Origin: Candidatus Bathyarchaeia archaeon
GTDB lineage: Archaea > Thermoproteota > Bathyarchaeia > TCS64
Assembly: GCA_050014495.1 (NCBI GenBank)
Contig: JBEKDF010000026.1
Coordinates: forward strand, 1-40,435
Direction: 5' to 3'
Length of the DNA stretch: 40,435 bases
A program made the translations under genes and the position numbers. The notes under the pieces are model-generated. The model was given only the letters and a program-made list of their open reading frames with translations, was not told the DNA's origin and made no database searches. Shown piece by piece: positions 21,247 to 40,435 of this stretch (within the stretch, counting starts at the first letter, position 1; every line of letters begins with the position of its first letter).

Positions 21247-21915
21247 TCAAAGTCGCGATATGAGCCCCTGAGCAACCTTCACAGCGTCATAGGCATTCTC
21301 TGCATATGCATCGGCACCTATGTCTCTAGCCCACTTCTCTGTGACAGCTGCACCTCCGACCATCACCCTGACACTGTCCCTCAACCCCTCTTTGTTCAGA
21401 GTCTCTATGACCTCCCTCTGCATCATTATGGTCGTGGTCATCAGCGCCGAAAGCCCCAGTATGTCTGGTTTCAACTCCCTAGTTTTCTCAATGAACACGC
21501 CCGTAGGCACATCTACACCAGCGTCAAAGACCTCGAAGCCACCAACCTCGAGCATCGCCTTAAGTATATTTTTACCAATGCTGTGGACATCACCGGCGAC
21601 CGTCCCAATAAGAACCCTTCCGAGTTGCACCCTCTCCTTCTTAGACTTGATTATCTCTTTCGATAGCCTTTCCGAGACCTCCTCCATAACGTTAGCCGCG
21701 CCCACCAGCTCGGTTAGGAAGGCTTCCCCTTTACCGAACCTATCCCCAACTCTTTTCAACCCCATAGAGAAGCCCCTATCGATAATATCAACAGGATCGA
21801 CTCCAGCCTTAAGCGCCGCCTCAGTCAATTCTAGAGCCTTCTCCGAGTCAAAGTACTCCAATGACTCCGCCATTTCCTCAAAGATTCTCCCATTGATCAA
21901 AGATGTAGCCTTCAC
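21247..21915 (-). CDS. Methyltransferase cognate corrinoid protein
   Basis: B12-binding motif GDVHSIGKN, SALMTTT, VMVGGA, IGADAY. Start uncertain. Confidence 0.93.
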   Translation of the reverse strand: MKATSLINGRIFEEMAESLEYFDSEKALELTEAALKAGVDPVDIIDRGFSMGLKRVGDRFGKGEAFLTELVGAANVMEEVSERLSKEIIKSKKERVQLGRVLIGTVAGDVHSIGKNILKAMLEVGGFEVFDAGVDVPTGVFIEKTRELKPDILGLSALMTTTIMMQREVIETLNKEGLRDSVRVMVGGAAVTEKWARDIGADAYAENAYDAVKVAQGLISRL

Positions 21916-23580: not shown

Positions 23581-23763
23581 CGATTAAATATCAAACTAAG
23601 TTATGATAAATTCAAACGCAATAAGTAAACACAAGTTATACAATAGAAGATAGAAGCAGCAAAAACAGTTATTCCGTTAAAACAGTCTTAATATTCACAT
23701 CTTTTATTTTTATATAAAAGAGCCGGGCGATAGAAGTATTCAACCGTTTTAATTTATCATAAA
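23581..23763 (+). repeat. att-like repeat, copy A (partial: 162-bp inverted-repeat-bounded module only)
   Basis: Ungapped hand alignment of 23601-23762 gives 132/162 identity to copy B and 123/162 to copy C. Confidence 0.9.
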
Positions 23764-23916
23764 CGCGCGCGCAGCGGCTAGTGTGACGATTGCGGCTGTC
23801 TATTACATGTTCACGCGCGCACAGTTCCCATCGGGGCGCGGGTGAACCTTCTCCGAATAGTGATATTGATTTAAAACGCCGTGATTGGTAACATAACTTT
23901 GAGAAGGTGAAGATGT

Positions 23917-24132
23917 TTGGAAAAATCTGAGACTAAGAAGATGTTAGAGAACGCTGTAAAGGTTACAGCCTCAATCAGACCTGATATGGAGGAGCTTTTA
24001 GGCATTCAAGCGAAGATAATGTGGGCTTATTATAACCAGCTCAAAAATGAAGGTTTCACGGATGATCAATCGTTTGAACTGGTAAAAAATGCGGCACCCA
24101 AACAGTTAGAGGTAAAACTCAAGAAACAGTAA
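23917..24132 (+). CDS. Small hypothetical protein (YxxLxxEGFTxDQ motif)
   Basis: 71 aa, AGGTGA ribosome-binding site and TTTAAAA box upstream. Confidence 0.7.
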   Translation: MEKSETKKMLENAVKVTASIRPDMEELLGIQAKIMWAYYNQLKNEGFTDDQSFELVKNAAPKQLEVKLKKQ

Positions 24133-24212
24133 TAGTGGAAAACATGTGGGGGTTCGCTAGTTTTTCTTTTCTCTCAATAGCCTTATCCTCACTTCCACCT
24201 GCTACTCAACCA

Positions 24213-24284
24213 TTACTTGATTGGCTGACCTACCTCCAGTCAGTGTCATACATCGCTGGAGCCTTAGGAGTAACAGTAGCCTCC
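24213..24284 (+). pseudogene. N-terminal remnant of the Bathyarchaeia-expanded 'LQSVSYIAGALGV' (DUF4760-like) membrane-anchored family
   Basis: Translation LLDWLTYLQSVSYIAGALGVTVAS recalled as resembling this family's N-terminus; the rest is missing. Confidence 0.55.
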
Positions 24285-24340
24285 GCTACCTGGCCCAAGA
24301 GCTTCATAAGCACCCGGACCCGATCCATAAATCGATCAAC

Positions 24341-25084
24341 TTGTACTCTGAATCTCACTGCCACCTCGGCGACATGAGCCCCGAAGACGTGAAGAGAGCC
24401 GAGGATGCACAACTCGCCCTCATGATAACTATGGGCTTGGATGAGGCATCCACAAACATCGCGTTGAAGCTGGCGAAGAGGCACCCAAGCATACGATTAA
24501 GCCTCGCAGTTCACCCCTGGTACAGCGATGAGTTAACTGAAGAGACTCGAAAGATGTTCCTGAGGCTCGCCAAGAACCCTGAGGTGGTCGCCATAGGGGA
24601 GACGGGTCTAGACTATACGGGGAGGATGAGTCACCAGTGGGTCAAGGAGGAGAAGTATGTGGATAAGGAGACTCAGATGGCGACGTTCCGCGCCCATGTA
24701 GGGCTCGCGAGGGAGCTGAGCCTCCCGGTCATCGTTCACGACAGGGCGCCGGGACAGGAGGTCCTAGACCTCCTCGAGGAGGAGGGCGCGGCGAAGACCG
24801 GGGTCATAATCCACGGCTTCTCCAAGGATAGGACGTATGCGCTGCGATGTGAGAGACTCGGAATCTACCTCTCCCTCGGGCTCAGGACCCTTCAGGCGCC
24901 TCCCCCCGGTTTCGAGGAGACAGTAAAGCACACCCCCATGAGGCTTATTGTCACTGAGACCGATTCCAATAAGCCCTGGGAGGTTGTGAAGGCCTGTGAG
25001 ATCGTTGGTAGAATGAAGGGTCTTACCATGGAGGAGGTCGGCTCCGCTGCGACGGGGAACCTCCGTCGACTCACTAAGCAATAG
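24341..25084 (+). CDS. TatD family metal-dependent hydrolase
   Basis: Motifs ESHCHL, AVHPW, AIGETGLDY, IVHDR, IIHGF and VTETDS. TTG at 24341 places HxH at the N-terminus. Confidence 0.92.
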   Translation: MYSESHCHLGDMSPEDVKRAEDAQLALMITMGLDEASTNIALKLAKRHPSIRLSLAVHPWYSDELTEETRKMFLRLAKNPEVVAIGETGLDYTGRMSHQWVKEEKYVDKETQMATFRAHVGLARELSLPVIVHDRAPGQEVLDLLEEEGAAKTGVIIHGFSKDRTYALRCERLGIYLSLGLRTLQAPPPGFEETVKHTPMRLIVTETDSNKPWEVVKACEIVGRMKGLTMEEVGSAATGNLRRLTKQ

Positions 25085-25379
25085 TTCTCGTCGTTTCAGC
25101 GTGCGCCCCTTGTGTTTTTGCTATAGCCTCATCCTCGGCTCCATCTTAGTAACTAACCTCTAGAAGTCAGTTATGACCGGCACACAGACGATCGTGAAGG
25201 ACCACAAGTAATAAAATATATTAAAATAAACTATTATTTAACTAACTATCTCACGTTTTCTTACAGATTTGCGCGCGCACTCAAGAAAAACTGGACAAAG
25301 CATTCGAAGAACTCGATACGGGCACATTCATCAAAACCAAAAAGCTAGTAAAACCATATTGATGCATGAGACACGCGCG

Positions 25380-25658
25380 CGTGGTTACTTCACCTCAAGG
25401 TTTGATGGCTCCCCGCCTGAACGCTGGGCCACCGACTTTGAGGAGTGGCTTACTGATAAGGTGGAGAAGGGAGACAACAAGTCTCTGTTCGACTATCGAA
25501 GTAAGGCCCCGCACCCAAAGAAAACCCAACCCCGACCTAACCACATAACGCCTCTGATGGTAGCGGTTGGTGCAGCGGGCATTGATGCTCCTGGGATAAA
25601 GATACAGGGTAGCTGGACATGGGGCGACCTAAGACTGGGTGCTTACCAATTCGAATAA
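25380..25658 (+). pseudogene. C-terminal remnant of a LigB/YgiD-type extradiol dioxygenase
   Basis: WATDFEEWL...DYRSKAPH...PNHITPLMVAVGAAG; the N-terminal two thirds are missing. Confidence 0.8.
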
Positions 25659-25751
25659 TCTTACACACGCGCAACAAGTTTTGAATTCAACGAACACAAC
25701 AGTAACAACAGGTGAGAGGAGACGGGTATAGACGGATCAGACATCTACCAG

Positions 25752-26825
25752 GTGACAGAGTGCCCCATCCCATCAGCTTCAAGAAATCATCACGAGGGGC
25801 TGGATTCACTCCTGAGCCTGATGGCTAGCAACGGCTTAAAATTCTACAAGACACAGAGAGCGGCGGACCTCGGCGGAGAAGACGGGCTAATCGGCAGATC
25901 CGATGTGGTCCTCCTGAAGATCAACGCGCAGTGGAAGTACAGGGGCTGCACAAACACTGACGTCGCCAGGGGACTCGTCCAGAGGATCCTGGAGCACCCC
26001 GACGGCTTCGAAGGCGAGGTAGTCTTCATCGAGAACGGGCAGGGCGGCGGGAGCCTGGAATGCGCCTCCACGTGGGGTGGGCAATACCCGGACGCTAGCG
26101 TCCACGCGAACGCGGAGGACGAGAGCCACAGCTACTCATTCATCGTCGACGAGGTATTCGCGGACAGAAGGGTGTCGAAGTATCTGCTTGATCCGATCCG
26201 CGGAACCTTCATCTCCGGAGACGACCACGCGACCGACGGCTACAGGAAGCTGAATCCAGTATCCTACCCCTGCTTCACCACCGCAAAGGGCAACAGGGTC
26301 GAGCTGAGGGAGGGCATATGGAACGGCGAAGGCTACAACAATAACCTGAAGCTCATCACGGTGCCGGTGCTGAAGCACCACATGGGCTGCGGCATCACCG
26401 GCGCCCTAAAGGTCTTCTACGGGGTGCTATCCATGATGGACGGTGGATCCAGTCAGCGCCACTACGATAAACTGGGTCTGCACTGTGGCACAATGATCGC
26501 CAGGGTCAGGGCGCCGACGCTGAGTATCCTGGACTGCACCTGGGTCTCAGCGGGCTCACTGTCGGGCTACCCCGCCGAGACGACCACTAGACTCGACCAG
26601 CTACTGGCAAGCCGTGACCCGGTCGCTCTGGACTACTGGGGCTCCAAACACCTGCTATACCCCATAGACAACAACAAGGAGCATAACCCCGACGAGTTCG
26701 ATGTTCTCCACGACCACCTCGCCCAGGCCTGTGGGGTAATCAACTCCGCCGGCGGAATCCATGGGAATAGGGTGACCATGGAGGAGAGCGACATGCGCAT
26801 CCACAGCACACGTGGCTGCAAGTAG
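25752..26825 (+). CDS. DUF362 domain protein (possibly N-terminally truncated)
   Basis: Motifs VLLKIN, TNTDV, VPVLKHH, ITGALK and ASRDPVALD. Confidence 0.82.
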   Translation: MTECPIPSASRNHHEGLDSLLSLMASNGLKFYKTQRAADLGGEDGLIGRSDVVLLKINAQWKYRGCTNTDVARGLVQRILEHPDGFEGEVVFIENGQGGGSLECASTWGGQYPDASVHANAEDESHSYSFIVDEVFADRRVSKYLLDPIRGTFISGDDHATDGYRKLNPVSYPCFTTAKGNRVELREGIWNGEGYNNNLKLITVPVLKHHMGCGITGALKVFYGVLSMMDGGSSQRHYDKLGLHCGTMIARVRAPTLSILDCTWVSAGSLSGYPAETTTRLDQLLASRDPVALDYWGSKHLLYPIDNNKEHNPDEFDVLHDHLAQACGVINSAGGIHGNRVTMEESDMRIHSTRGCK

Positions 26826-26885
26826 CATTGCGTGTACACCCGGGTAATTCTTTTCAACATGATTCAATTAATCAAGGATTAGGGG

Positions 26886-27902
26886 ATGATGGAAGTGAAC
26901 TATCGTAGATTGGGGAAAACCGGGCTCAAGGTCTCAGAGATCGGGTTCGGCTGCGGCAATATAGGCGGCTTAATCATCCGAGGGACCCACCAAGATCAGT
27001 TAAACGCCGTCAAGAAGGCCTTGGCGACGGGCATCAACTACTTCGATACCGCCCCAAGCTACGGCGACGGAAGATCAGAGACCCACCTCGGCGACGTGCT
27101 CTCTGAACTCAACCCCGACATCATCCTCGCTACCAAGGTCGGCCTCACACTCGAGGACATGAGAGACGTAAAGGGAGCAGTGCAACGGTCAGTAGATGAG
27201 AGCCTGAGGCGGCTACGACGAAGCAGCGTCGACGTGCTCCAGCTTCACTCCAGGGTGGCATTGACGCGGAGCAGCGCGCCCTGGACAGGCGCATTAAGCG
27301 TCGAAGACGTCATCGAGGATAACGGCGTCGCAGATGCATTCGAAGCCGTCCGCTCTCAAGGCCTGACGCGCTTCATAGGCTTAACCGGCATCGGCGAAGC
27401 CGAGGCGCTACACAGGATCGTGGACAGCGGCCGATTCGACGTTCTGCAGGCTTACTATAACCTGCTGAATCCAAGCGCGGGGTGGAGCGTACCCAACGGA
27501 TTCAAGGGATACGACTTCAAATCAATCATGGATAAGGCAGCGGCGCGGGGCATGGGCGTGGCAGCGATCCGTGTGATGGCTGCGGGGGCCCTCGGAGGCA
27601 TCGAAGCCCGCGCCGGCTACGCTTCACCCACAGTTGGGGGGCCGCTAGTACCCAGCTCGGAGTATGAAAAAGATGAGGCCGCCGCGAGCCGCCTTAGTTT
27701 CCTAGTGTTTGGAGATGTTAAGAGCCTGCCTCAGGCTGCACTGAGATTCGTGTTGATGCACCCGGCGGTCTCGGTGGCTCTCGTAGGCTTCTCCAACCTC
27801 AGGCAAATAGAGGAGGCAGCCGAGTGCTCAGGAGCCGAGCCCCTCCCTAAGTCTCACTTGGATCGTCTGAAGAAAATTTGGGGTGAACTACCCATGACTT
27901 AA
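26886..27902 (+). CDS. Aldo/keto reductase
   Basis: Motifs LGKTGLKVSEIGFG, FDTAPSYGDG, ATKVG and VDVLQLH. Confidence 0.94.
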   Translation: MMEVNYRRLGKTGLKVSEIGFGCGNIGGLIIRGTHQDQLNAVKKALATGINYFDTAPSYGDGRSETHLGDVLSELNPDIILATKVGLTLEDMRDVKGAVQRSVDESLRRLRRSSVDVLQLHSRVALTRSSAPWTGALSVEDVIEDNGVADAFEAVRSQGLTRFIGLTGIGEAEALHRIVDSGRFDVLQAYYNLLNPSAGWSVPNGFKGYDFKSIMDKAAARGMGVAAIRVMAAGALGGIEARAGYASPTVGGPLVPSSEYEKDEAAASRLSFLVFGDVKSLPQAALRFVLMHPAVSVALVGFSNLRQIEEAAECSGAEPLPKSHLDRLKKIWGELPMT

Positions 27903-27914
27903 GTCATGCATACT

Positions 27915-27972
27915 CCATTTGATATTATCATAAATACCTAAATATTAGCAATAATTTGCCTAAATATTGCTT
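27915..27972 (+). repeat. att-like repeat, copy D (right inverted-repeat arm plus 11-bp repeats only)
   Basis: TTTGATATTATCATAAATACCTAAA...CTAAATATTGCTT matches 29470-29524. Confidence 0.85.
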
Positions 27973-28337
27973 AAAAACAAATTACATGGGAATTTTAAGA
28001 GATTAAATAAAGTCTTGCCCTCCAAAGTGGAAGTTTTTCTGTTACTGCAAATGCATTTCGATATACAAGGCCCTTTTCGATTGCGGGATGGGCGTGCACG
28101 GGTTTTCCGAGGTGGTGCATTGAGGCTGAGTATCTAAGTGATCGAATCCTTGAGTATGGGAGGGAGCGTCCGGAGGTCCAGATTGTTCCCAACCTTAACA
28201 CAGCCTCAGCGATTTCAAGATCCTGATTCAATAATCTTATCCTCACTTCCACCTGATACTCACCAATGAAAATGATGGCGCCACCCTCAAGTCGCACCCA
28301 TTAAATCTCTGACGCCACCCATACATCCCGATAAGCC

Positions 28338-29195
28338 ATGCCGAAAGCATCCAGACTAGGAGAAATCGCCTCTGACCCAAAGGTTGAGAAGATCCTCAGC
28401 GGATTCCAGTTCACGGAAGGACCTCTCTGGGATGACGGGAGACTTCTCTTCTCAGACATACCCGCAAGCACCATCTACAGCTGGAAGCCCGGTGTCAAGC
28501 ACGCCGAAGTCTACCGGAGACCAAGCGGCCACAGCAACGGGCTCACCCTAGACAGGTGTGGCCGCCTCATAGCCTGCGAGCACGACAGGCGCCTGACCCG
28601 CACCGAGCGGGACGGCACCCTGAAAGTACTCGCCGAAAGCTACGACGGCAGGAGGCTCAACAGCCCTAACGACGTCGTGGTGGCGAGGAACGGTGCCATC
28701 TATTTCACAGACCCACCATACGGCCTCAACGATGAGCTGGAGGGAAAAGAGCTGCCCTATCAGGGAGTCTACAGGCTGGGAGTCCGCGGGAAGCTGACTC
28801 TCTTAGACGACACCTTCGACCGCCCAAACGGCCTCGCCTTCAGCCCAGACGAGTCTAGGCTATATGTAGATGATACGGCGCGGCGTCACATCCGGGTCTT
28901 CGATGTACAGAGAAACGGATCCTTATGTAACGGCATGATCTTCGCGGAGCTTAGGGGTGCTAAGCCGGGAAACCCCGATGGTATGAAGGTCGATGTTCAC
29001 GGCAACGTCTACTGCACTGGCTCCGGTGGCGTCTGGGTAATCAACCCATCCGGTGAGGCGCTCGGCGTCATCGAAACCCCTGAGGTCTCCTCGAACGTCG
29101 CGTGGGGTGACGCTGATTTCAAGACTCTATACATTACTGCGCAGACCAGTGTCTACAGGGTAAGGACAGCGACAGGTGGCCTCCCACTAACCTAA
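28338..29195 (+). CDS. SMP-30/gluconolactonase/LRE family protein
   Basis: Motifs FTEGPLW, LNSPND, YFTDPPYG, PNGLAFSPD and PDGMKVD. Confidence 0.94.
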   Translation: MPKASRLGEIASDPKVEKILSGFQFTEGPLWDDGRLLFSDIPASTIYSWKPGVKHAEVYRRPSGHSNGLTLDRCGRLIACEHDRRLTRTERDGTLKVLAESYDGRRLNSPNDVVVARNGAIYFTDPPYGLNDELEGKELPYQGVYRLGVRGKLTLLDDTFDRPNGLAFSPDESRLYVDDTARRHIRVFDVQRNGSLCNGMIFAELRGAKPGNPDGMKVDVHGNVYCTGSGGVWVINPSGEALGVIETPEVSSNVAWGDADFKTLYITAQTSVYRVRTATGGLPLT

Positions 29196-29238
29196 TCTCG
29201 TACGTCTATCTTAAACTTAGAGTAAACTCACTTGCTTA

Positions 29239-29524
29239 TTACTGTTCGAGAAACAGTCATTTTATCGAGTAGAAGGTGGGTTACGGCCGGTCCACTCGAG
29301 CACGATTTTTACATCGAACTAAGTTATGATAAATTCAAACATGATTTGTAAACGCTGCATATATGATAGAAGATAGAAGCAACGAAAACGGTTATTAAGT
29401 TAAAACAGCCAACGGATTCACATCTTTTAGTTTTAAATAAAAAAGCCGGGCGATAGAAGCATTCAACCGTTTGATATTATCATAAATACCTAAAAATTGC
29501 CTAAAAAATAACTAAATATTGCTT
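29239..29524 (+). repeat. att-like repeat, copy B (full length, with rnpB 3'-end homology at 29271-29290)
   Basis: Hairpin ACTGTT-N5-AACAGT, core AGAAGGTGGGTTACGGCCGG, inverted repeats at 29324 and 29468, 11-bp repeats from 29487. Confidence 0.92.
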
Positions 29525-30014
29525 ATAAATTGCTTATTCGCGCACGCTTGAGCTGCTTATACTATATCCCATCCCATCTGTAGGCCTGTGGCTCCTCGCA
29601 TCCGCTGACGTAGAATCTCCTCAGGGCGGGGGAATGAAGGACTTCAACTTTTTAGGCGAGGGTGCGCTGGTTCACTGATAAAAGAATAGGCACGAACCAC
29701 GAGATGAGGGGGGAGTAAAAGAGGCGCGTGCGCGCGATTATGTAAGAGCTTGGGAGTGCACCTTGACTTTCAGAGATGAAAGATTCCCGAGTGCACCGAA
29801 TCCCCTGAAACCGAGAGAACAGAATTGGCTTCACAGAGTTCAGAGGCTAAAACAATCGTTTTCAAATGTGGGAGCGTAGGCGTGTCTAGACTGAATTTAC
29901 TGTGTTAGCATACTCTATTGGAATCTGGGGAGCCCTTGAGAACTTAGCTAGTTCTTCTGCTCGAGGGTTTGAACCAGAAATATATATTCTACTCCCTTAC
30001 TCAAAACTCTTAGA

Positions 30015-31385
30015 TTGTCGGAAATAGCGTTAATCTATCCATATACGGATCCGCCACGCAACAAATCGATCTTCAGGTTTCCGCCCCTCGGAATAGGCTA
30101 CATATCCGCCCACCTTCGTGATGCAGGGTACAAAAACTCTATTATCGACGCAACATTCATCGGCGAGAAAGAAGCAATCGCGAAGGTCAGGTCGCTTCAT
30201 CTCAGAATAATTGGTATCTACTCGATGTTTACCATGCGGGAAGCCAGCCTCCGATTCGCACGCGCCCTACGAAACGACTGCGACTTACTAGTCGCAGGCG
30301 GCCCACTCCCCACAGTTGAACCAGAATCCTATCTTAACGACTTCGATGTAGCCGCTGTCGGAGAAGGAGAGGAGACAACGCTCGAAATAGCGAGAGGGTT
30401 AAAACTCAGGGAAATAGACGGGCTTGTCTACCGTGAACGAGCTGGAAGGCCCCTGAGGCCTGGAGAGTCTGGTGGTGATGTAATCCACAACTCCCCACGG
30501 CGCGTCCTCAAGAACCTTGATGCGATTCCTCTACCTGCCCGAGACCTCTTTGACAATCAACACTACATAGGCTACTACAAGCAGAGAGGCGAACCCCCTA
30601 CGACGAGTGCAATAACGAGTCGCGGCTGCCCCTTTGCATGCGACTTCTGCAGCCACCCAATCTTCGGCGAGAGTTTCCGCGAGCGCAGTGCAGCAAACAT
30701 GGCTGATGAGGTCGAGCAGGTTCTCTCACTGGGATACGAGCGGGTCTTCTTCCAGGACGATTGCTTCACACTCACAAAGGGAAGAGTTACAAAGTTCTGC
30801 GAAGAGGTTGAGCGCCGAGGTCTTCGGTTTGGCTGGGAGTGCCTCAGCCGGGTAGACAGTATGGATAGAGATACCGCTGCCCGAATGCATGCTGCGGGTT
30901 GTGACCAAGTTTTCTTCGGACTTGAGTCCGGCAGTGAGAGGGTGCTTAAGATAATGAATAAGAGCGCCACCCCCGAGATGGGAAGGAGGGCAGTTGAGGC
31001 TGCCAAGGCTGGTGGTCTGAAAACGGGTGCCTTCTTCATCTTTGGTTACCCTGGCGACGATACTGAGTCGATGCTTGAGACGCTTCACTTCGCCAACAGC
31101 CTACCTTTGGACTACCTCAGTTTCACGTATCCTTACCCGATTCCCGGTACGCCTCTCTATGAGAGGGTTAAGGATAAGATGATGGAGGGGAACCCCGAGC
31201 CCCAGCAGAAGGGGCTCGTTCATCATCAGCTTATCTACTACAGTGAAATCCCGGAGATTAAACTCAAATTCGGTATAATAGAGGGTTTAACCATCCACTA
31301 CCTAAAGCTCCACTTTGGTCGTGTGGCGCCACTCTTAGTTAGACCGTTTAAATTCATAGGTGATGGGGTGTTCAGACGTCTTTAG
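30015..31385 (+). CDS. B12-binding radical SAM protein
   Basis: PPLGIGYI B12-domain start, GEGEET, TSRGCPFACDFC, FQDD, GLESGS. Confidence 0.93.
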   Translation: MSEIALIYPYTDPPRNKSIFRFPPLGIGYISAHLRDAGYKNSIIDATFIGEKEAIAKVRSLHLRIIGIYSMFTMREASLRFARALRNDCDLLVAGGPLPTVEPESYLNDFDVAAVGEGEETTLEIARGLKLREIDGLVYRERAGRPLRPGESGGDVIHNSPRRVLKNLDAIPLPARDLFDNQHYIGYYKQRGEPPTTSAITSRGCPFACDFCSHPIFGESFRERSAANMADEVEQVLSLGYERVFFQDDCFTLTKGRVTKFCEEVERRGLRFGWECLSRVDSMDRDTAARMHAAGCDQVFFGLESGSERVLKIMNKSATPEMGRRAVEAAKAGGLKTGAFFIFGYPGDDTESMLETLHFANSLPLDYLSFTYPYPIPGTPLYERVKDKMMEGNPEPQQKGLVHHQLIYYSEIPEIKLKFGIIEGLTIHYLKLHFGRVAPLLVRPFKFIGDGVFRRL

Positions 31386-31468
31386 ATCGATTATTGAGTA
31401 TATACGCGATCAAGTTTTTAGTATCTTTTGGTCCTTGTATTAGATAAATAATCTTTAGCGCATATAAT

Positions 31469-31774
31469 CTAAATCTCTACTTGAATCTGATCGCCTTCGA
31501 CTCTCACAAGGTAAGATGGCTCTGGCTTAGCTGCCGGACCCTTGTACACTGCTCCGGACTTCAGTTCAAAGGTTGATCCATGGCACACGCATCGAATTCT
31601 CATACCATCTATCGTTCCATCGCTTAACATGCATCCCCTATGCGTGCACTTCCCCCCAATTGCATAGTATTCATTCTCCAAATTAACGAGCAGAACAGGT
31701 TCACCAGCTAGAACTATACCCAGCTTCTCCCCAGGATTAAGGTCGTTGACGGATGCTGCTCTTCTGAACTCCAT
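31469..31774 (-). CDS. Rieske-type [2Fe-2S] ferredoxin
   Basis: CTHRGC...CVCHGSTF motifs and GPA. Confidence 0.93.
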   Translation of the reverse strand: MEFRRAASVNDLNPGEKLGIVLAGEPVLLVNLENEYYAIGGKCTHRGCMLSDGTIDGMRIRCVCHGSTFELKSGAVYKGPAAKPEPSYLVRVEGDQIQVEI

Positions 31775-31837
31775 CTTCTTGACTCCTAATGACTAGTTCA
31801 GTAGTTTGAATAAAAAATATGCGTGCGCTATCTGGCA

Positions 31838-32537
31838 TTAATATCCTGGGAAGATTTCGGTCTTCACTTGTTGTTGGCATCTTCAGATCCATTATCATAA
31901 TGTTGGTTAGATCGTCGACCATCTTCTGTGGGCCAGATATGTAAGTTACTCGGTCCATGAAATCTGGCACGACCCTACGCATCATATCTTCATTGATTCT
32001 CCCCGTTAGGCCGTCCCATTTTCCTTTCGGCTGGGTTATGGTGTAGATGATTTTGATTTGATCATTGTTCTTCTGCATGTCGTCCAGCTCGGCTTTGAAG
32101 GCGATGTCGTCCTCAGAGGTGTTGGAGTAGAGGAGTGTAATATCTGATTTCAGCATCAGATCAGTGCAATATCGCATAATGCTTCGGATCGGTGTAATGC
32201 CGATTCCACCGGTCAGCGCCAGGATCTTGGTGTACTCGCCCACGAAGGTGAAGTCTCCTTCGGGGCCATCAATCTCAACCTTTTCTCCGACTTTCAGGGA
32301 TGCAAGTGCGTTAGCGAACTCGTGGCCTGTGAGCCTTTTAGTCAACTTAAGGTGGGTTAATTCTGTGGGGCTGCTGGAGATTGTGAAGTGTTTCTCTGCT
32401 TTTTGGCCGCTGATTGTTAGTTCAATGTACATGTATTGGCCTGGCAGATAGTTGAATTCCTCTGGTCTGTTGAATCTGAGACTGATATCATTTGGAGTTC
32501 TCTGGATTATCTCCTTGACAACGGCCTCGAACTGCAT
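31838..32537 (-). CDS. FNR-like FAD/NAD(P)-binding oxidoreductase with a C-terminal frameshift
   Basis: Motifs PGQY, HFTISS, GGIGITP and ISGP. The canonical tail QVKTEIFPGY* is in another frame, ending at 31838. Confidence 0.85.
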
Positions 32538-32703
32538 GTCTGCTTCTTTAATTATTCGGGAAGAGTTGATAAAAAGGTTGGTCAGTGGCGCGTGCAAGTG
32601 TATATGTAGTGGGACCTTACAGCCTCACCCTCGCTCCGCTGCAGACGCGCGCACCATAATCAAGGTTTAATACCTATTTTTTCAATGGTAGTAACGTACT
32701 ACT

Positions 32704-34179
32704 TTGACCGGTGAAATCTCATCAAATAAAGGTGATAGAGGTGAGCAGGTTCTACTAGTGTTTCCAGGAAAGTACAATGTTCCAAACCCACAGATTCCCC
32801 TTTCGATACTACACTTGGCTGCTTACCTAAAGAGGAGTGGCTTCGAGGTAAAGATCCATGATATGAGAATTGAGAAGTACAACGACAATCTACTTCGGGA
32901 TCCCCTCTTCGTTGGAATAAGCTCGATGAGTGGCCACCAAATAAGATACGGACTGGATTTCGCTCGGAAAGTTAGGTATGTCGATGCGAAGATACCGATC
33001 GTGTGGGGAGGAGTTCACCCGAGTCTCTTACCGGAGCAAACCATAACAAACGAGTTTGTGGATGTAGTCGTACGCGGAGAAGGTGAGGAGACGATCGTCG
33101 ACCTCGCCAAGAGATTCGCCGCGAACCAACCGCTCGACGATGTAGCCGGTATAACCTACAAGGCTGAAGGAAAGATCAGGAGCAACCCCGATAGATCGCC
33201 AATTAATCTGGACGAGATCCCTGTAGACCTCCCATACGATCTCATCGATACAGAGCGTTATCCCTCAATCAAGTCAGGCCGATTCCACATACAGACGAGC
33301 CGGGGGTGTCCACATAGATGTGGGTTCTGCTACAACACTGTATTCAACAAGAGGAGCTGGAGAAGTAAGAGCCCTGAGAGGGTTCTAAACGAGTTCGAGT
33401 ACGTACTTGACAAGTATCCCCATATTAAATGTCTAGATTTAATCGATGACAACTACTTCGTCGACAAGTCAAGGGTGGAGGCCATTTGCAAGGGGATGCT
33501 TGAACGAGGAATTGACGCCACATGGCGCGCCGACTGCAGGTTTGACTACATGTCGAAATATGAAGAGAGTTTCATTAGACTACTCGAGAAGTCGGGGTGC
33601 ATCGAGCTAAACTTCGGCGCTGAGACAGGTTCGGACCGCCTCCTGGAGTTGATTCATAAGGACGTCACCACTGACATGATGTTCAAATCGGTCGAGAAGC
33701 TGAGGGACTACGCACCCTCCATCGAGCTATACGTATTCTGGATGAGTGGACTCCCCGAGGAAACTGAAAGCGATCTTGAAAAAACCTACGGGGTGATGGA
33801 GAGACTATCGGAGATAAACCGGAAGACGCAGCATGTTGAGATATGCATCTACACCCCCTTTCCCAGCCCGATGCTCACCGAGTTCGCATCAGATTACAAG
33901 CTCCCAACATCACTCGAGGAGTGGGGAGGTGTGGACGTGTTCCACTTCAGGCCCCCATGGCACGAAAAAGGCTACGTAGACAAGCTTGAGGCCATATCCG
34001 CAGTCACGAGGTACACCTTCTATCCCAAGGCCAGGATCAGAGAGATGAAGCAGCCATTTAGAGCCGGGTATAAACTAATGCATAGGGTAGCTAGCTTCAG
34101 GTGGAAACACAAATACTTCAGCTACCCAATGGAGCTGAAGGCCGTCAGCTCCCTATCTCGTAGGCTACGGGGCTACTGA
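32704..34179 (+). CDS. B12-binding radical SAM protein
   Basis: Motifs IPLSILHL, WGGVHPS, GEGEET, TSRGCPHRCGFC, DDNY and GAETGS. Confidence 0.93.
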   Translation: MTGEISSNKGDRGEQVLLVFPGKYNVPNPQIPLSILHLAAYLKRSGFEVKIHDMRIEKYNDNLLRDPLFVGISSMSGHQIRYGLDFARKVRYVDAKIPIVWGGVHPSLLPEQTITNEFVDVVVRGEGEETIVDLAKRFAANQPLDDVAGITYKAEGKIRSNPDRSPINLDEIPVDLPYDLIDTERYPSIKSGRFHIQTSRGCPHRCGFCYNTVFNKRSWRSKSPERVLNEFEYVLDKYPHIKCLDLIDDNYFVDKSRVEAICKGMLERGIDATWRADCRFDYMSKYEESFIRLLEKSGCIELNFGAETGSDRLLELIHKDVTTDMMFKSVEKLRDYAPSIELYVFWMSGLPEETESDLEKTYGVMERLSEINRKTQHVEICIYTPFPSPMLTEFASDYKLPTSLEEWGGVDVFHFRPPWHEKGYVDKLEAISAVTRYTFYPKARIREMKQPFRAGYKLMHRVASFRWKHKYFSYPMELKAVSSLSRRLRGY

Positions 34180-34180
34180 A

Positions 34181-35419
34181 GTGGGTGAAGCTAACAAAGG
34201 TACCACAAGTCACATCTCCAAGATTATAGACGGCAACGTCAATTTCGGCATAAAAATACCGAAGAGGTACCTAGTCTCCATTGCAGCAGTTCTTGTTATG
34301 AAGACTCTTGTGGCCATCATTGTATATTATTTGCTCAACCTCGGAGTCGTGGGAAGCTACTGGATGGACCAGACCAGAGTATTCTCAGGGCCTCAGAATC
34401 TTATCCTCTGGCAGAATCCTTATCACGCATCGAGCGGGGAGTACCTGTTCCTAGGCTGGGACAGCGCCTGGTATCTCAGCATCATCGCGAAGGGCTACTC
34501 CTTCAGCCCACAGAGCATCGCCTTCTTCCCGGGCCTGCCCTCGATCTCAGGCATACTAAACCTGGCTCTAGCTAACCCTGTCTCTTCCCTATTGATCGTC
34601 ACACTGCTATCCGGAGTTGCTTGGGTCCCGTTGTTTCAGGCTATCTCGGAACACTACATGGAAAAGCGCCTCGCCCTGGTATCGACGCTGATCTTTGCCC
34701 TCTCTCCCTTCACCCTCCTCTTCTCCACGGTGGCTTACGCCGAGGGATTGTTCTTACTCCTAAGCCTAGGTTCATGGTGGCTATGTCTCAAGGGTAGATT
34801 TGGCTCCGCCACGATTGTCGCTACAGTCTCCGCTACCACAAGACCGGTGGGACTTCTCCTCGCTTTACCCATTTTCCTCAAAGCGCTGAAAACCAAGCGG
34901 ATCAAACACATTTCCGAGAAACTTTACATCCTTGCTGCGCCTGGCTTAGGCTACCTGTCGGCGTGGGTAAACGGATGGCTCGTCACCGGCAATCTCTATG
35001 CTATCATCATGGTTAACGAATGGGGGACGATGTACAGTTTCTTCACTTTCATCACGAGGCTTCTCCCGGTCTATCTCCTAGGCTCATTCTCTATGATCAC
35101 ACAGTATCTCACTATAAACCCCCTACTACCCTACTTCATCATGCTATTCCTAATCCTGACACCGATCACCATCATCTATTTTATCAGAATCGACAAGGAG
35201 CTGGCGATTTATAGCCTAACATATTACATTGGGATTCTAGTCTTCGGAGCCATATTATCAATTCCACGCTACTTTTCCTTCCTCTTCCCGCTTTGGCTAA
35301 CCCCCAGTATCTCTCGAGCGTTTTCGGGGAAACGAATACTAATCCCTTACTTGATATTATCTGTGGCAATCACGATAATATTATGGCTGAGTTTCCTCAA
35401 CGGGGTCTTCGTTGGATGA
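34181..35419 (+). CDS. GT-C membrane glycosyltransferase (PIG-V/mannosyltransferase-like)
   Basis: Motifs WDSAWYLSII..GY, AFFPGLP, YAEGLFL and TRPVG; multiple TM helices. Confidence 0.87.
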   Translation: MGEANKGTTSHISKIIDGNVNFGIKIPKRYLVSIAAVLVMKTLVAIIVYYLLNLGVVGSYWMDQTRVFSGPQNLILWQNPYHASSGEYLFLGWDSAWYLSIIAKGYSFSPQSIAFFPGLPSISGILNLALANPVSSLLIVTLLSGVAWVPLFQAISEHYMEKRLALVSTLIFALSPFTLLFSTVAYAEGLFLLLSLGSWWLCLKGRFGSATIVATVSATTRPVGLLLALPIFLKALKTKRIKHISEKLYILAAPGLGYLSAWVNGWLVTGNLYAIIMVNEWGTMYSFFTFITRLLPVYLLGSFSMITQYLTINPLLPYFIMLFLILTPITIIYFIRIDKELAIYSLTYYIGILVFGAILSIPRYFSFLFPLWLTPSISRAFSGKRILIPYLILSVAITIILWLSFLNGVFVG

Positions 35420-35510
35420 CTCCAACTCGACGCATGTTGTTCACAATAAGGAAAACGTGACAGCCATAAGCTCGGGATTAAGTATAGGAATTCAACTCTA
35501 AGTAATACAC

Positions 35511-36959
35511 TTGGCTAATCTCGACAAACCTCTGTACGAAGAGTACACTCTTACTCGCTTTAACGAAGCGATAGCTAAGGAAGTAAAAAACAAGTGGGCT
35601 AGGATCTGGGGCATGTTGATTTTCTCGGGATCAACTATGGTCCTGTTCCCAGGGGGACCGAATATAAGAGACTTTGTTGACGCAGCCTTCTTCGCTACGA
35701 AGATTAGTTGGCTAATCCCTTTACCTTTGCTATTCATCCAGAGCATAGGGGTCAATAGGATCCTCACGCCGGGCCTTATGATTGACTCAAGGAAAATCAA
35801 GTACTGCAGGGATGAGTTAGGCACCAAGCGAATAATCTACACTATAACGACTAAGGGTGAGAACCTCACAACTCTATCCGACTCGTTTAACTCCACGGTT
35901 CATTGGATTACCGAGGTGAAGGACAAGTATCACCTTCAATTCACTTCAGAAGTTTGGGTCGTCACGGAGGAGGCTAATTATGAGAAAAACCGAAGTTTTT
36001 ACCGAAGCCTGGAGGAGAAAGGTGGCATAATCGTTGCCACTCCAAGGTCCTACACAACACAAAACAACTCCCACTTTAAGGCTAGGGCGCTCCAATATGC
36101 AGTAAAAACCAGGATTGAACGAGGCATCAACTCCCCAGAGGATTGGGTATACCACCAAGATACCGAAACCATGATCGGTGAGGACACTGTACTCGGTAAC
36201 TTGGACTTCATAAACGAGGCAAGCGATAGTCGCCTGATTGGCTCAGGCATAATACTTTACCCCCAAGATTGGCGGTACCAGTACAACTCGGTGGAGGAGA
36301 CCACAAGATCAGTTGGTGACATCAGCGCTTTAGGGCAGGCAGAGATGTGGGGCGCTGTCCCCTTCGGCTACCACGGCTCCCACTTCATTGTAAGGGCCGA
36401 TGTCGAGAATACAATAGGTTGGGACTTCGGCGATAACCGATCTGAGGATCTCTACTTTTGGTTACAGGTGAGGAAGAAGTATGGGTTGGTCGCTCGCCCT
36501 CTGAAGGGGTTTGCCTACGAGAAACCACCCTTGACATTCACCGATCACCTCAAGCAGAGAAGAAGATGGGTCCTCGGATCGATTGATGTTCTTAAGCGTT
36601 CAGATAATCCCATCAGATTCAGGGCCCCGCTCATCTACGGTCTTCTGTCATGGTTATCCGCTCTCCCCTCCTTAGCGGCTGCCATGCTGAGCCTAATTAG
36701 ACCTACAGGCGGCATTATCGATTATTTGGGGGGATTAATAGCCGGGTTCACCTGGTGGTCGATAATCAGTAACTACTTGGTTGGGTTAGAGATCCACGAG
36801 GTTTATGTCGAAAAAAAGGTGAATTGGAAGCTGTTAAGACTGATTTGGTCGGCGGCTTTAGGAATCCTAGCAGACGCTGTCTCCCCCTGGTATGCATTGA
36901 TCTGGAGAACAAAGGGTTACGATGAGGTTAAGAAGGATACGCGCGTCAACCCGGCTTAG
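35511..36959 (+). CDS. GT2 membrane glycosyltransferase (egghead/BRE-3-like beta-mannosyltransferase type)
   Basis: Motifs FKARALQY, WVYHQDTET, HGS, SED and QRRRW; N- and C-terminal TM segments. Confidence 0.85.
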   Translation: MANLDKPLYEEYTLTRFNEAIAKEVKNKWARIWGMLIFSGSTMVLFPGGPNIRDFVDAAFFATKISWLIPLPLLFIQSIGVNRILTPGLMIDSRKIKYCRDELGTKRIIYTITTKGENLTTLSDSFNSTVHWITEVKDKYHLQFTSEVWVVTEEANYEKNRSFYRSLEEKGGIIVATPRSYTTQNNSHFKARALQYAVKTRIERGINSPEDWVYHQDTETMIGEDTVLGNLDFINEASDSRLIGSGIILYPQDWRYQYNSVEETTRSVGDISALGQAEMWGAVPFGYHGSHFIVRADVENTIGWDFGDNRSEDLYFWLQVRKKYGLVARPLKGFAYEKPPLTFTDHLKQRRRWVLGSIDVLKRSDNPIRFRAPLIYGLLSWLSALPSLAAAMLSLIRPTGGIIDYLGGLIAGFTWWSIISNYLVGLEIHEVYVEKKVNWKLLRLIWSAALGILADAVSPWYALIWRTKGYDEVKKDTRVNPA

Positions 36960-37392
36960 CGAGTACATAGAGTTCAATATAGAGCAGAATGCCGATGGTT
37001 GCTGTCGTTGCCCATAGGATTATTGTTGGCTTCATAAATCTCCTGTTTTTTAGGCATTCGACCAGGGGTTTATTAAGTCTCCATTTCAATGCGAGGTAGT
37101 AGCCTAAGGTTAAGGAGACTGTTCCCAATCCAGCGTGAAGTATTGCAATGATTGAGAGCGGATTAGCGGGGTTAATTGCTATGAAACCCAGTCCTAATAG
37201 GAGTGAGGGCAGCATGATGGTGGCCAGTGATACGGTGTTAAGAGCAACTGCCACCGTCATGTATTTGCCATGTTGTTTGAAGTTCTTCCTTCTCGCTCTG
37301 CTTCTGCCTATTAATAGAAAGCAGAGAATCGCGATTTGAAGGATTAGGTTAATATCGGCTGGTATCCCGGCTGTCGTGCCTAAAAATCCCAT
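36946..37392 (-). CDS. DUF420-like 4-TM membrane protein
   Basis: Four TM helices, HGKYM, ILHAGLG and C-terminal GILLY. Confidence 0.72.
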   Translation of the reverse strand: MGFLGTTAGIPADINLILQIAILCFLLIGRSRARRKNFKQHGKYMTVAVALNTVSLATIMLPSLLLGLGFIAINPANPLSIIAILHAGLGTVSLTLGYYLALKWRLNKPLVECLKNRRFMKPTIILWATTATIGILLYIELYVLAKPG

Positions 37393-37452
37393 TTTATAGT
37401 ATAGTTATGTGATTAATTAATAAAAGTTGAGTGAACCAGCTCTGTGGTTCAT

Positions 37453-37780
37453 TTATGGTGCGGCGCCTTGTCCGCAGAAATATTCTTCAATCATGTTTGT
37501 TGTATTGTCGTAACTTGTATCCTATGAAGTTCTCACATACTGGGCAAGTACATATTTTTGTAAAGTCTAAATCTTTACAAGGTGACGCGCCTTTAGAACA
37601 ATATACTCCTGATAGTGACTTGGGCTCTGGAAGTTTCTTCCTAAGCTCGCTATCTGCGGATGCCTCCTTGATCATTAAACCAGCATCTCTCCCCATTTTC
37701 GAGCAGGGACTATCTAATTGCACCAGACAATTGAAACAGATACACTAGATAACAGTATCGAGGTTGAATGGAACCTTCAT
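37453..37780 (-). pseudogene. DUF2769-like Cys-rich protein, disrupted
   Basis: MKVPFNLDTVI*CICFNC...VYCSKG...CTCPVC. In-frame TAG at 37745-37747, plus a frameshift separating the YFCGQGAA tail. Confidence 0.8.
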
Positions 37781-37886
37781 GATTTTTCAATTATTCTTTG
37801 TGAATGGCGGTTTAAATTACTTAAGGAACCGTTCTCGCCTTGCCGCGTGCACCGTCAGTTTTAAGATTCTTCACCGGTTTTAAATA

Positions 37887-38735
37887 CTAATTAGGGTCTG
37901 TCCTCGGACCAATCTTTACCTTATAGCTGATAGAATCATGTCTCCTAAACGATAACGTCAAGCCTGCCCAGCTGAGCCTCCCCTTCACCCTCTCTCGGCC
38001 ACGCCAAAAACTAGCCCCCAATGGCTTAAGCACAGTGAATGATAGCCCTCCATCGAGAGTCGAGAGCGTAGCCTTCTCCGCATCAACCTTCTCCCAAGCA
38101 CCAATCTCGTTGTCGATAAGTGTAGAACTCAAGTCATCATATCTTCTAAACGTAAGGGCACCCTGCTCATTAAGTAACATCAACTCCTCACATCCTTCGC
38201 TAAGCTCCGTGGAGACATCAATCCCGATCTCATCCTGGCGGACTGAGTAGAGTACACTAACCCGTCCTCTCGATTGGGCGACTATGAAGCTCGTCCTCAC
38301 CCCAACCATGTTCCTGAGCTCCATTATCTTGTCGAAGAAGGGTCTCAGATAATTAAGGGACAGGTAAAGAATACTGAAAATACGGTGTGCAGGATGATAG
38401 ATGGCGTCGCTTATCCTTGATTCGCCGAGGCTTTTTACTGAGACGGTATCCAACTCATATATTTTCTCGATGATTGGATACGGATCGCTTTGGATCATTC
38501 TGAGTGTCGCTGAGCCGGGGAAGAGGGTTTTATCTCTGAATATGGCGATAGGGAGCCCAAAGCCCGCTCCCTCCTCTACGAGCTCCACACCTCCTTTGAC
38601 TAAAATCAAGGCCTTATGTATACCTGCTAACTCCAGGTTCCCTGGCCTCCGATCCGGGTAAATCCTGAGGGCGAATCCATTCGATAAGTCGATGGTTATA
38701 GACTCCGCCGATCTAACGTCACTGTCTCTCGCCAT
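37887..38735 (-). CDS. Hypothetical protein (beta-rich)
   Basis: 282-aa ORF with EEGAGFGLP, NEQGA and GRE...WAGL segments; no function recognised. Confidence 0.8.
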   Translation of the reverse strand: MARDSDVRSAESITIDLSNGFALRIYPDRRPGNLELAGIHKALILVKGGVELVEEGAGFGLPIAIFRDKTLFPGSATLRMIQSDPYPIIEKIYELDTVSVKSLGESRISDAIYHPAHRIFSILYLSLNYLRPFFDKIMELRNMVGVRTSFIVAQSRGRVSVLYSVRQDEIGIDVSTELSEGCEELMLLNEQGALTFRRYDDLSSTLIDNEIGAWEKVDAEKATLSTLDGGLSFTVLKPLGASFWRGRERVKGRLSWAGLTLSFRRHDSISYKVKIGPRTDPN

Positions 38736-38875
38736 CTCTTCACTATGAAGAATCTCATAGCGGTCCGCAATAAAGATGATAGAAGGCGCGCACTCTGAGA
38801 AGCAGAACCCTGAGCTTCGGTGCCGAATTGAGGAATTGACATCTCGCTAGTCTTATGCTTCGTTCCACCATCAAC

Positions 38876-39162
38876 TTACTGTTCGTCAAATAGTCATTTT
38901 ATTTCAGAAGGTGGGTTATGACCAGCTTATCAACAACTGCATTTTTGAGTATAGTACTAAGTTTTGATAGATCTAAACGCAATAAGTAAACGCCGAATAT
39001 GTAAAAGAATATTGAGGCAACTTGAGCGTTTATTACATTAAGACAACCTAAGAATTCATATCTTTTAGTTATGAGTAAAAGAGCCGGGCGATAGAAGCAT
39101 TCACCCGTTTGAATTTATCATAAATACCTAAATGTTACCAATTGTTTACCTAAATATTGCTT
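38876..39162 (+). repeat. att-like repeat, copy C (full length, with rnpB 3'-end homology at 38905-38926)
   Basis: TTACTGTTCG...AGTCATTTTAT, core CAGAAGGTGGGTTATGACCAGC, inverted repeats at 38962 and 39106, 11-bp repeats after 39125. Confidence 0.92.
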
Positions 39163-39240
39163 CTAAGTTGCATCTACGCGTATGGATGAGGCAAGAAAGT
39201 GGTATCTGGTAGATGTAAATAAATGCACGCGCGCATATGC

Positions 39241-39432
39241 CTAGCAGCCGACTGCAATCGATTCAAAGTCAATGAGTTTGGTCGTCACGCCGCCGCGGAG
39301 TTGCTTCGTTGCCGGATCCTTGATGGCCCTTACGGGCTGTCCCCAGTCGTGGAGTTCCTCGCTGACCCAATCTAAGTCATGGCCCATAGAGGTTAACTTG
39401 TCCCTAACTGATGGCGAAAATCTGCTATCGCT
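39241..39432 (-). pseudogene. C-terminal remnant, gamma-glutamyltransferase-like
   Basis: DSRFSPSVRDKLTSMGH...IKDPATKQLRGG...AVGC* resembles the GGT C-terminus. Confidence 0.65.
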
Positions 39433-39505
39433 CGCGCGTGGCTAACGCGCTCACTTGTGATTATACTTTTGAACCAATAAATAGTAGCTACTATCTTGGT
39501 TTGGT

Positions 39506-40435
39506 GTGCCGAATCGCCTCGCATTTCTTCAAACAGTACCGAGGGACGCGAAGATACTAATATTCTCAAACGCGTTCCGAAGCTTCAGCTCCGCCATCCT
39601 CACCGTCGCTTTCCCCATATATCTCAGCAAGATAGGCGTCTCCCCAGTCCTCATCGGGCTAACCTTCATGGGGATCATTCTGTTCTCCGCCATCAGAAGC
39701 CTGATTGAGGGAGTCATCGCTGATCGATTGGGGCGGAAACCCGTCCTCATCTTCATCGCGGGCAGCCTCGTCATCGGAGGCGCCATCTTCGTGGCAACGA
39801 CGAACATCACTATTCTTCTCATCGCCGCAGTCCTATTCACAGTAGGTGGATCAATCACCTACACCCCCGCCGAGATCGCCCTGTTAGGTGACAAGGTAAG
39901 CGATGAGAACCGGACGATGGCATACAGCATCAACGCAACACTTGCGACGGCGGCCAGCATACTCGGCAGCTTCGCTGGAGCCATACCCGAAGCGCTTCAG
40001 AGACTTGGTCTCCCCGAGATTTTAGCTTACCAGCAGATATTCGTGATCTTCGCAGTCGTCGGGGTCATTTGCATCATACTCTTCGCGTTGATCAAAGAGG
40101 TAAAACCGGAGCACATACCAATCGACTTCAGCTCTCCAACGGAGCAGGACATCAGCGAGAGAAAGTTTTTGCTGAAGTGGAGCAGCGTGGTCGCCTTAGA
40201 CGAGATCGGTGGCTCCTTCAACAACCTCCTCAGCTACTGGTTCTACCTCCGCTTCAGGGTGGGTCCCGCTGAGATAGGTCTAATCACTGGACTTGGCAAC
40301 CTTATTTCAACTGTCAGCTATGCCCTCGGTCTGAAGATGGCGAAGCGCTTCGGGACAATCAGAGCGACGGTGATGAGCAGGGTTCCCATCTTCCTCATAA
40401 ACTTCCTAACCCCTTTCATGCCGAGTTTCGCCTTA
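39506..40435 (+). CDS. MFS transporter, partial (runs off the right edge)
   Basis: Open frame from GTG at 39506; GVIADRLGRK motif A and multiple TM segments. Absent from the ORF track because it has no stop in the window. Confidence 0.9.
   Translation, partial: MPNRLAFLQTVPRDAKILIFSNAFRSFSSAILTVAFPIYLSKIGVSPVLIGLTFMGIILFSAIRSLIEGVIADRLGRKPVLIFIAGSLVIGGAIFVATTNITILLIAAVLFTVGGSITYTPAEIALLGDKVSDENRTMAYSINATLATAASILGSFAGAIPEALQRLGLPEILAYQQIFVIFAVVGVICIILFALIKEVKPEHIPIDFSSPTEQDISERKFLLKWSSVVALDEIGGSFNNLLSYWFYLRFRVGPAEIGLITGLGNLISTVSYALGLKMAKRFGTIRATVMSRVPIFLINFLTPFMPSFAL

Follow-up and report, generated by a model that had tools for sequence, protein, structure and literature searches.

The window analysed here is the entire 40,435-nucleotide contig JBEKDF010000026.1 of a Candidatus Bathyarchaeia archaeon (GCA_050014495.1). 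It carries metabolic genes and an archaeal RNase P RNA gene, and in addition three copies of a 162-bp module, which raises the question of what kind of site is repeated kilobases apart on one contig. A preliminary description had seen in the module a rigid architecture with spacing under selection, as in an intasome-type nucleoprotein site, and had named a replication or transfer origin or a structured RNA as alternatives. We find that the modules are most probably joints in a stack of integrase-less cassettes at a tRNA-Cys gene, the integrase acting from outside or having been lost. This reading is carried by the identity of the core with the tRNA end, by four junction forms, by exchange of arms at the core, by a cassette shared between arrays and by the lack of an integrase inside the cassettes. 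In the following, G-numbers denote genomes (G000 being the window's own genome of 3.1 Mb), C-numbers contigs of G000 (the window is C26) and L-numbers sequence stretches from relatives or metagenomes.

A hybrid joint with a tRNA-Cys core

Copies A (23601–23762), B (29324–29485) and C (38962–39123) are each 162 bp long and align without a gap. As had been counted before, 30 substitutions separate A from B and 39 separate A from C; B and C differ by 37, and shifting the alignment of the three by one or two bases leads to 107–115 mismatches. The invariant 16-mer AGCCGGGCGATAGAAG is exact in all three copies, and GATAGAAGCA occurs twice in B, at 29372 and 29452, 80 bp apart, both as previously noted. 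A fourth copy lies on contig C3, where its left 130 bp continue directly into an intact tRNA-Cys(GCA) gene on the opposite strand. The last ten bases of this gene, read as their reverse complement, give the 10-mer AGCCGGGCGA, of which the 3.1-Mb genome has 9 copies; together with the next G, it forms an 11-bp shared block. Judged from its sequence, the module is a hybrid joint, in which 120 bp to the left and ~85 bp to the right of the core are the opposite ends of neighbouring cassettes. Of the intasome-type reading, the part that describes an attachment (att) recombination site is well supported, but the tRNA-Cys-end core and the hybrid nature of the joint had been missed.

The tRNA ends themselves differ between genomes. 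CCA is encoded by 35 of 45 tRNA-Cys ends, and four read CTT; three of these belong to the three genomes in which the tRNA adjoins the window's left-arm type, and one to a genome with another arm. In G000, 37 of 41 tRNA calls encode CCA; its tRNA-Cys does not. We additionally observed second and third, diverged tRNA-Cys genes in G016 (L265), G012 (L266, L267) and G015 (L268), away from the tRNA-Pro-linked copy.

All four forms expected at an integration site were observed: the empty site, the tRNA followed by a left arm, the left arm–core–right arm joint, and the host flank followed by core and right arm. In G012 the site is empty, with a cupin gene, a beta-propeller-like gene and lactate racemase leading into a tRNA-Cys gene with CCA. 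In L101 it is filled, since the flanking genes of G012 are followed by a displaced tRNA end (CCA) with a right arm, by three inner joints and finally by a left arm and the tRNA; the alignment between G012 and L101 stops at the core. Further arrays were found in G002, G011, G013 and G016. The right-arm pattern is present in 5 of the 79 genomes of the order, all of them from the window's genus (4 of 17 others), sequence records with the same joint pattern are labelled Bathyarchaeia or Bathyarchaeota, and one metagenome scan contributed 13 stretches with the pattern.

Cassettes and arms behave as separable units. A transketolase cassette is shared by G002 and L101 over 2501 bp at 89.5% identity, an interval that begins shortly ahead of one core and ends shortly after the following one, and its neighbours differ between the two arrays; this extent was taken from blastn, an insertion near the second core spoiling the gapless bin comparison. 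Arms of other types also occur in combination with those of the window: a second type of left arm, seen in G011, G016 and L095 and as a variant in L099, adjoins a right arm of the window's type, and in G002 a left arm of the window's type adjoins a second type of right arm, which is that of G005. In both cases the switch lies exactly at the core.

We propose a model in which a circular cassette with left arm, core and right arm (attP) would recombine with the tRNA 3′ end. The tRNA would be rebuilt to the discriminator and one C, with the encoded CCA being lost in the case of the window's arm type, and the old tRNA 3′ end would be displaced as attR. Every further cassette would go in next to the tRNA, and the joint left behind would have the shape of an attP, as in A, B and C, being composed of the left arm of one cassette, an 11-bp copy of the tRNA 3′ end and the right arm of the next cassette. 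We predict that an integrase would use the inverted 18-bp boxes, at fixed distances of 120 and 42 bp, as its arm sites, and that the A-rich units in 11-bp phase probably serve to bend DNA or as binding sites of an accessory protein. The tyrosine integrase would likely come from outside the array, probably from a visiting virus or plasmid, or would have been deleted after entry, and copies would decay later, often at breaks marked by (CG)n runs.

Layout of the array and spacing of its arms

Metagenome contig L094 matches the window's last 11352 bases and 122 bases at the end of C3 with zero mismatches and fills a 551-bp gap between them; therefore, the right part of the window and the end of C3 form a single array behind tRNA-Cys, with cassettes of 9.0, 9.6, 1.5 and 4.2 kb going outward from the tRNA. 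The tRNA-proximal cassette (9.0 kb in total) starts with an MFS gene in the window (39092–40435) and goes on across the gap into C3 with a PadR-like open reading frame (ORF), ABC-transporter-like ORFs and ChrB, followed by the left arm and the intact tRNA-Cys gene at C3:117738–117811. Joint C comprises a left arm (38954–39080, plus strand; box 38962–38979), the core (39081–39091, minus strand) and a right arm (39092–39179, plus strand) with box and 11-bp units from 39125. Upstream of it lies a piece of an RNase P-type att site (38876–38937, plus strand) with a copy of the 3′ end of the RNase P RNA gene (rnpB) at 38906–38937, matching in 13 of the first 13 and 25 of all 32 bases. Cassette B–C (29454–39080, 9.6 kb) contains two B12-binding radical SAM genes and genes for a Rieske protein, an FAD/NAD reductase, a glycosyltransferase and a DUF420 protein, and no recombinase.

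In joint B, the left arm (29316–29442, plus strand; box 29324–29341) shares 93% identity with the arm adjoining the tRNA-Cys gene on C3, the core (29443–29453, minus strand) matches in 10 of 11 positions, and the right arm (29454–29541, plus strand) has its inverted box ending at 29485 and four to five 11-bp units from 29487. Before B, a second RNase P-type piece (29237–29302, plus strand) consists of the TTCG...TTTATCGA arm and a decayed copy of the rnpB 3′ 32-mer at 29271–29302 (13/13, then 22/32), inverted relative to rnpB. The cargo of the 1.5-kb cassette D–B is an SMP-30/gluconolactonase gene (28338–29195, plus strand), and of joint D just the right arm with its box and four 11-bp units is left (27915–27977, plus strand), core and left arm being lost. 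Cassette A–D (23731–27905, ~4.2 kb) carries genes for TatD, a DUF362 protein and an aldo-keto reductase, a 63-aa phage-like ORF with a weak PHROG 11511 match (23941–24132) and an RNase P 3′ piece at 25170–25189; no left arm remains at its D end. Joint A, finally, is made up of the left arm (23593–23719, plus strand; box 23601–23618), which is the end of an eroded distal cassette, the core (23720–23730) with TCGCCCGGCTC on the minus strand, and a right arm (23731–23763, plus strand) that is shortened after the inverted box and carries no 11-bp units. A (CG)n run at 23764–23772 links this arm to a fragment of a multicopy gene family encoding ~180-aa membrane proteins (23764–23816, plus strand). 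Decay is distal both here and in the array of L101.

Such (CG)n runs were observed at 23764–23772, 29540–29547 and 39229–39236 of the window and at many arm ends in relatives, marking arm breaks or joins to gene fragments. The ~180-aa family, whose members stand in tandem and have an N-terminal membrane helix, is preceded by a 25-bp motif with 178 occurrences at up to 5 mismatches on 48 contigs of G000, often ~600 bp apart (window 24174–24213, 28228–28267, 38844–38883 and 23772–23816; C72, C74, C75, C50, C24 and others), which is probably a shared promoter or leader of this greatly expanded family. Elsewhere in the window, at 19774–21915, a trimethylamine methyltransferase gene of the MttB family lies next to a corrinoid protein gene; a PYLIS_3 Rfam match falls at 20178–20277, and the ORF stays open for 490 aa with no in-frame stop. 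A 48-bp inverted repeat (4910–4957 and 5375–5422; 88% complementary, 417 bp apart), one arm of which lies within an arginine-deiminase-family gene, is perhaps a local inverted duplication.

Not all of the geometry ascribed to the module held up. The 18-bp inverted repeats are present but imperfect in every copy, with 1, 3 and 4 mismatches in A, B and C, respectively. Of the two strings that had been taken for common ends, the left one is exact in A only and the right one in C only. Nor is 162 bp a natural size: similarity between B and C spans 308 bp (74%, 4 gap openings), and the shorter length arises because A is cut directly after the box, at 23763, where the (CG)n run joins it to the gene fragment. 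A strictly gapless module is not borne out by the relatives either, in which spacing varies by about ±2 bp. The distance from box to core is 120 bp in 9 of the 16 left arms with a detectable box and 118–121 bp in 14 of them; two near-identical left arms with a deletion have 93 bp, and further left arms are truncated and lack the box. From the core to the end of the right box, 42 bp were counted in 18 of 19 right arms and 40 bp in the remaining one. Stretches that duplicate the window's own joints (L094, L096–L098, L102 and L103) were excluded from these counts, and of the near-identical L091 and L092 both were retained for spacing, L092 being omitted from the phasing test.

The 11-bp units described downstream of B, C and D were recovered. 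Across 17 right arms, autocorrelation reaches 0.52 at lag 11 and 0.63 at lag 22 compared to 0.32 after shuffling, none of 300 column shuffles attains the peak at either lag, and units 1 and 3 are most alike. In 28 pairs of 8 full joints we counted 45 gap openings per 1019 substitutions (0.044), compared to 46 per 401 (0.115) in 12 pairs of the tRNA 5′ flank, where the pairs are non-independent and the control is a rough one that partly spans a gene end. The lower ratio in joints lends moderate support to selection on spacing, which looks constrained, but not absolutely, with many copies decaying.

The 18-bp inverted repeat might instead close a structured non-coding RNA, as 85.8% of cells pair in this helix over 10 joints. 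However, the covariation check gave nothing beyond shuffles, with one both-sided change that is equalled in 250 of 500 of them; the RNAalifold consensus, at −3.3 kcal/mol, lacks the 18-bp helix, none of its 9 pairs being compensatory, and there is no Rfam match at the module. Moreover, its two halves occur apart, as attL and attR. Separation of the halves at array ends is expected neither of an RNA nor of an origin, and we regard the RNA as next to negligible in probability. The A-T richness and the phased repeats would also suit a replication or transfer origin with iterons or an Xer/dif accessory site, and we take the 18-bp box to resemble the XerD half of dif. However, the site is tied to a tRNA end, and a Pfam scan of 33 window ORFs gave no match to initiator or relaxase families, nor to integrase or transposase families. 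The boxes, moreover, lie 126 bp apart in three to four copies, in contrast to the 11-6-11 layout of dif given in PMC8371274, which leaves an origin or dif site highly improbable.

The integrase and the RNase P site

If the modules are att joints, an integrase would be expected nearby or in trans. No integrase or remnant was detected in any of the 15 bounded cassettes, which span 1–9.6 kb, nor in the 14.7 kb left of A, by a six-frame phmmer search with 31 integrase ORFs from these genomes; the same search detected decayed integrases behind rnpB in G008 and G012, serving as positive control. Elsewhere in G000 there are 13 PF00589 matches, and no arms were found near the 12 of these loci examined. 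An autonomous parent element with the same ends was found neither among viral contigs, plasmids and phages nor at integrase or tRNA-Cys loci: exact arm patterns gave 0 matches in four scans of viral contigs, and joint B gave none in a distant blastn search of plasmids and phages. With a looser 15-base pattern, 70 stretches were obtained; a left arm was seen in none of them, and in one the similarity was confined to the 24 bases surrounding the pattern, which we attribute to chance. Contigs were inspected for 4 of 24 DNA runs and revealed no joint leading from core to core; as rare forms are lost from contigs, the result is uninformative on excision.

Several observations weigh against a stack built by an integrase. 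The cognate recombinase was not found, and none stands beside any arm; conversely, no arm was found at any of 41 integrase loci from 11 genomes. G011 and G015 carry arms and have no PF00589 match at 88% and 92% completeness. No integrase was detected beside tRNA-Cys loci (30 at ±1.5 kb, 12 wider and 30 more stretches), three matches lying at rnpB. The enzyme class is deduced from site anatomy and known biology: a tyrosine integrase is suggested because a short core at a tRNA end is combined with long unequal arms, because the resolvase family PF00239 has no match in any of 5 genomes, and because flush terminal repeats are missing. By eye, no clear inverted pair of core-type sites flanks the core. 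The terminal attR of the G000 array was not found, and damage to the tRNA-proximal arm in G015 and its alteration in G011 stand in contrast to the distal decay of the arrays in G000 and L101. Finally, joints show a weak correlation between the identities of their left arms and those of their right arms (rho 0.50 over 21 pairs, which are not independent), a result not expected under free shuffling.

Alternatively, a transposase or casposase directed at tRNA ends could have created the core as a target-site duplication, the blocks then being stacked transposons. Casposons do form tandem stacks at tRNA 3′ ends, duplicating 15 bp on insertion (PMC5137440), Cas1 homologues were found in four of five genomes searched (six matches in G000), and in G016 a left arm with the 120-bp spacing stands at tRNA-Ser(GCT), where the tRNA end is similar and the core different. 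However, whichever of 49 boundaries is chosen, the cassettes do not end in inverted repeats that are flush with the duplication (a mean of 5.9/15 at best, over 12 joints), with the 18-bp boxes lying ~14 and ~100 bp inside the cassette ends, and this test already disfavours stacked transposons. In addition, no arm lies near any Cas1 gene of G000, G011 has an array and no Cas1 match, and in a Pfam scan of cassette ORFs neither casposase nor PolB families were matched. We therefore consider this explanation very unlikely. As an observation in its own right, the Cas1 matches of G000 lie on C80, C18, C46, C6, C79 and C24, one near full length and the rest partial, and G016 has four; a simple repeat scan of G000 gave no CRISPR-like array, and near the matches another cas gene was not evident, so that they possibly represent a small Cas1-solo mobile element.

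A piece of a second, likely target is embedded in the left arms. The rnpB gene of the window (977–1278, minus strand; Rfam RF00373 at 984–1278) ends in a 32-mer (977–1008) of which 10 of 20 left arms carry a copy; those upstream of joints B and C have the opposite orientation to the gene and follow the TTCG...TTTATCGA element. Nine copies stand 169–177 bp from the core and one, after a deletion, at 111 bp; they match 11–13 of the first 13 bases and 19–26 of 32, and joint A has none. Among 14 rnpB loci of the genus, a PF00589 ORF lies directly behind the gene in G009 (L256) and G013 (L259), beginning at or reading through the rnpB 3′ end, and is decayed in G008 (L261) and G012 (L263). In G002 (L049), another integrase adjoins a TTCG-type arm and a full rnpB copy. 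rnpB is thus likely an integration target, and apparently a hotspot, in the window's genus, and by titles and abstract openings no archaeal RNase P gene is evident as an integration target in the literature. The copy in the left arms may be a second site that still works or the relic of a former fusion; a (CG)-rich run after the copy in some arms suits a relic.

Further rnpB-related pieces were noted. Pieces of the rnpB end occur at 25170–25189 in the window and on contigs C7 and C67, and AATGGTACCATT-like palindromes are repeated behind rnpB (window 750–975) and around the rnpB copy on C7 (290–830), probably where an element that integrated at rnpB in G000 has its two ends. After this copy, 15 bases at C7 ~585–605 are identical to the middle of the B left arm, with similar letters behind rnpB of G015 by eye; this stretch, which the left-arm profile missed, is a possible link between the left arm and an element targeting rnpB. 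About 10 bases behind tRNA-Leu(GAG), L045 and L046 (G003 and G015) have the start of an rnpB-type arm whose copy of the rnpB 3′ end is nearly complete, a second case of an rnpB-type site nested beside another tRNA target.

These data bear on a stronger form of our explanation, a live integron-like system of cargo-only blocks that never carried an integrase and are moved by a helper in trans, the rnpB-type site possibly being a second exchange point. It would account for the absence of integrase remnants from all 15 cassettes of 1–9.6 kb, for the same transketolase cassette in two arrays, for the regular distance of the rnpB pieces from the core and for the integrase ORFs directly after rnpB in G009 and G013. 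However, with many arms ending in cuts at (CG)n runs, deletion alone could be enough to account for the missing integrases, cassette A–D retains its weak phage-like ORF, the rnpB copies are decayed past their first 13 bases and no helper was identified; we hold this form to be possible, but doubtful. Going further, the joint might be part of an active two-target system, a lambda-like attP for the tRNA-Cys end with a second att site for rnpB ~170 bp away, on which two integrases in trans would load, swap or relocate metabolic cassettes. We rate this as unlikely; if true, it would represent an integron-like gene store in Bathyarchaeia without an integron.

Comparison with known systems

An integron is a cargo-only cassette array that grows at one fixed site with intI. 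The integrase-less stack at tRNA-Cys resembles it in being a cargo-only array at one fixed site, but has no intI beside the array, no attC-type hairpin, a site at a tRNA-gene end and multi-gene cassettes. Tandem casposons and tandem site reuse have been described (PMC6563490 and PMC5137440). Like the Cys cassettes, tandem casposons are stacked at the 3′ end of a tRNA and have a short duplication between them; in contrast, the Cys cassettes lack flush terminal inverted repeats and, among the ORFs scanned, a casposase or PolB family. Membership tests run for integron, casposon, dif site and RNA all came out negative.

Closer parallels are found among genomic islands. The ssrA islands of Dehalococcoides are tandem metabolic islands bounded by 3′-end repeats of an RNA gene, of which 15 lack and 16 carry a serine integrase module at a 20-bp repeat (PMC3146451); the Cys array differs in having the enzyme in 0 of 15 cassettes, an 11-bp core and no resolvase-family match in 5 genomes. 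Cis-mobilizable elements (CIMEs) have no integration or transfer genes, keep attL and attR and accrete at the 3′ end of a target gene, as described for Streptococcus ICESt1/ICESt3 in PMC5704250. Likewise, the Cys array shows direct repeats of the tRNA 3′ end as att bounds, no integration or transfer genes inside, an empty site in a relative, stacking and chimeric attP-like joints. CIMEs, however, adjoin integrative and conjugative or integrative mobilizable elements that encode the integrase, whereas the Cys arrays have no autonomous partner that we could find, an archaeal host and the att piece of a second target in their arms. The array thus works like CIME accretion, except that the parent element was not found.

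The joint itself resembles the attP of phage lambda, which measures ~240 bp with sites bound by Int, Xis and IHF (PMC8371274): known here from sequence alone, it combines a short core, long unequal arms with conserved spacing and repeated boxes over ~250 bp. The same source describes archaeal att sites as short as 8–13 bp and treats the lambda layout as an exception, characterised archaeal integrases acting without directionality factors; in an archaeon, arms of this kind would thus be uncommon. Elements that lack an integrase and the repeated use of a single site in tandem have both been described before (PMC8371274 and PMC5704250). By titles and abstract openings, neither such an array nor an integron is evident in the literature on Bathyarchaeia, where supplementary island tables may already list such loci. 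The general kind of array is thus known, and its new features are the lambda-like arms, the complete absence of the enzyme and the embedded RNase P site. For a widespread, uncultured group of sediment and peat archaea, the array represents a base-exact route of metabolic gene gain and loss, through which aldehyde oxidoreductase, transketolase, radical SAM enzymes and transporters are exchanged. As lambda-like arms are not reported for characterised archaeal integrases in the available part of PMC8371274, the site additionally offers a substrate on which arm sites and directionality factors can be tested in archaea.

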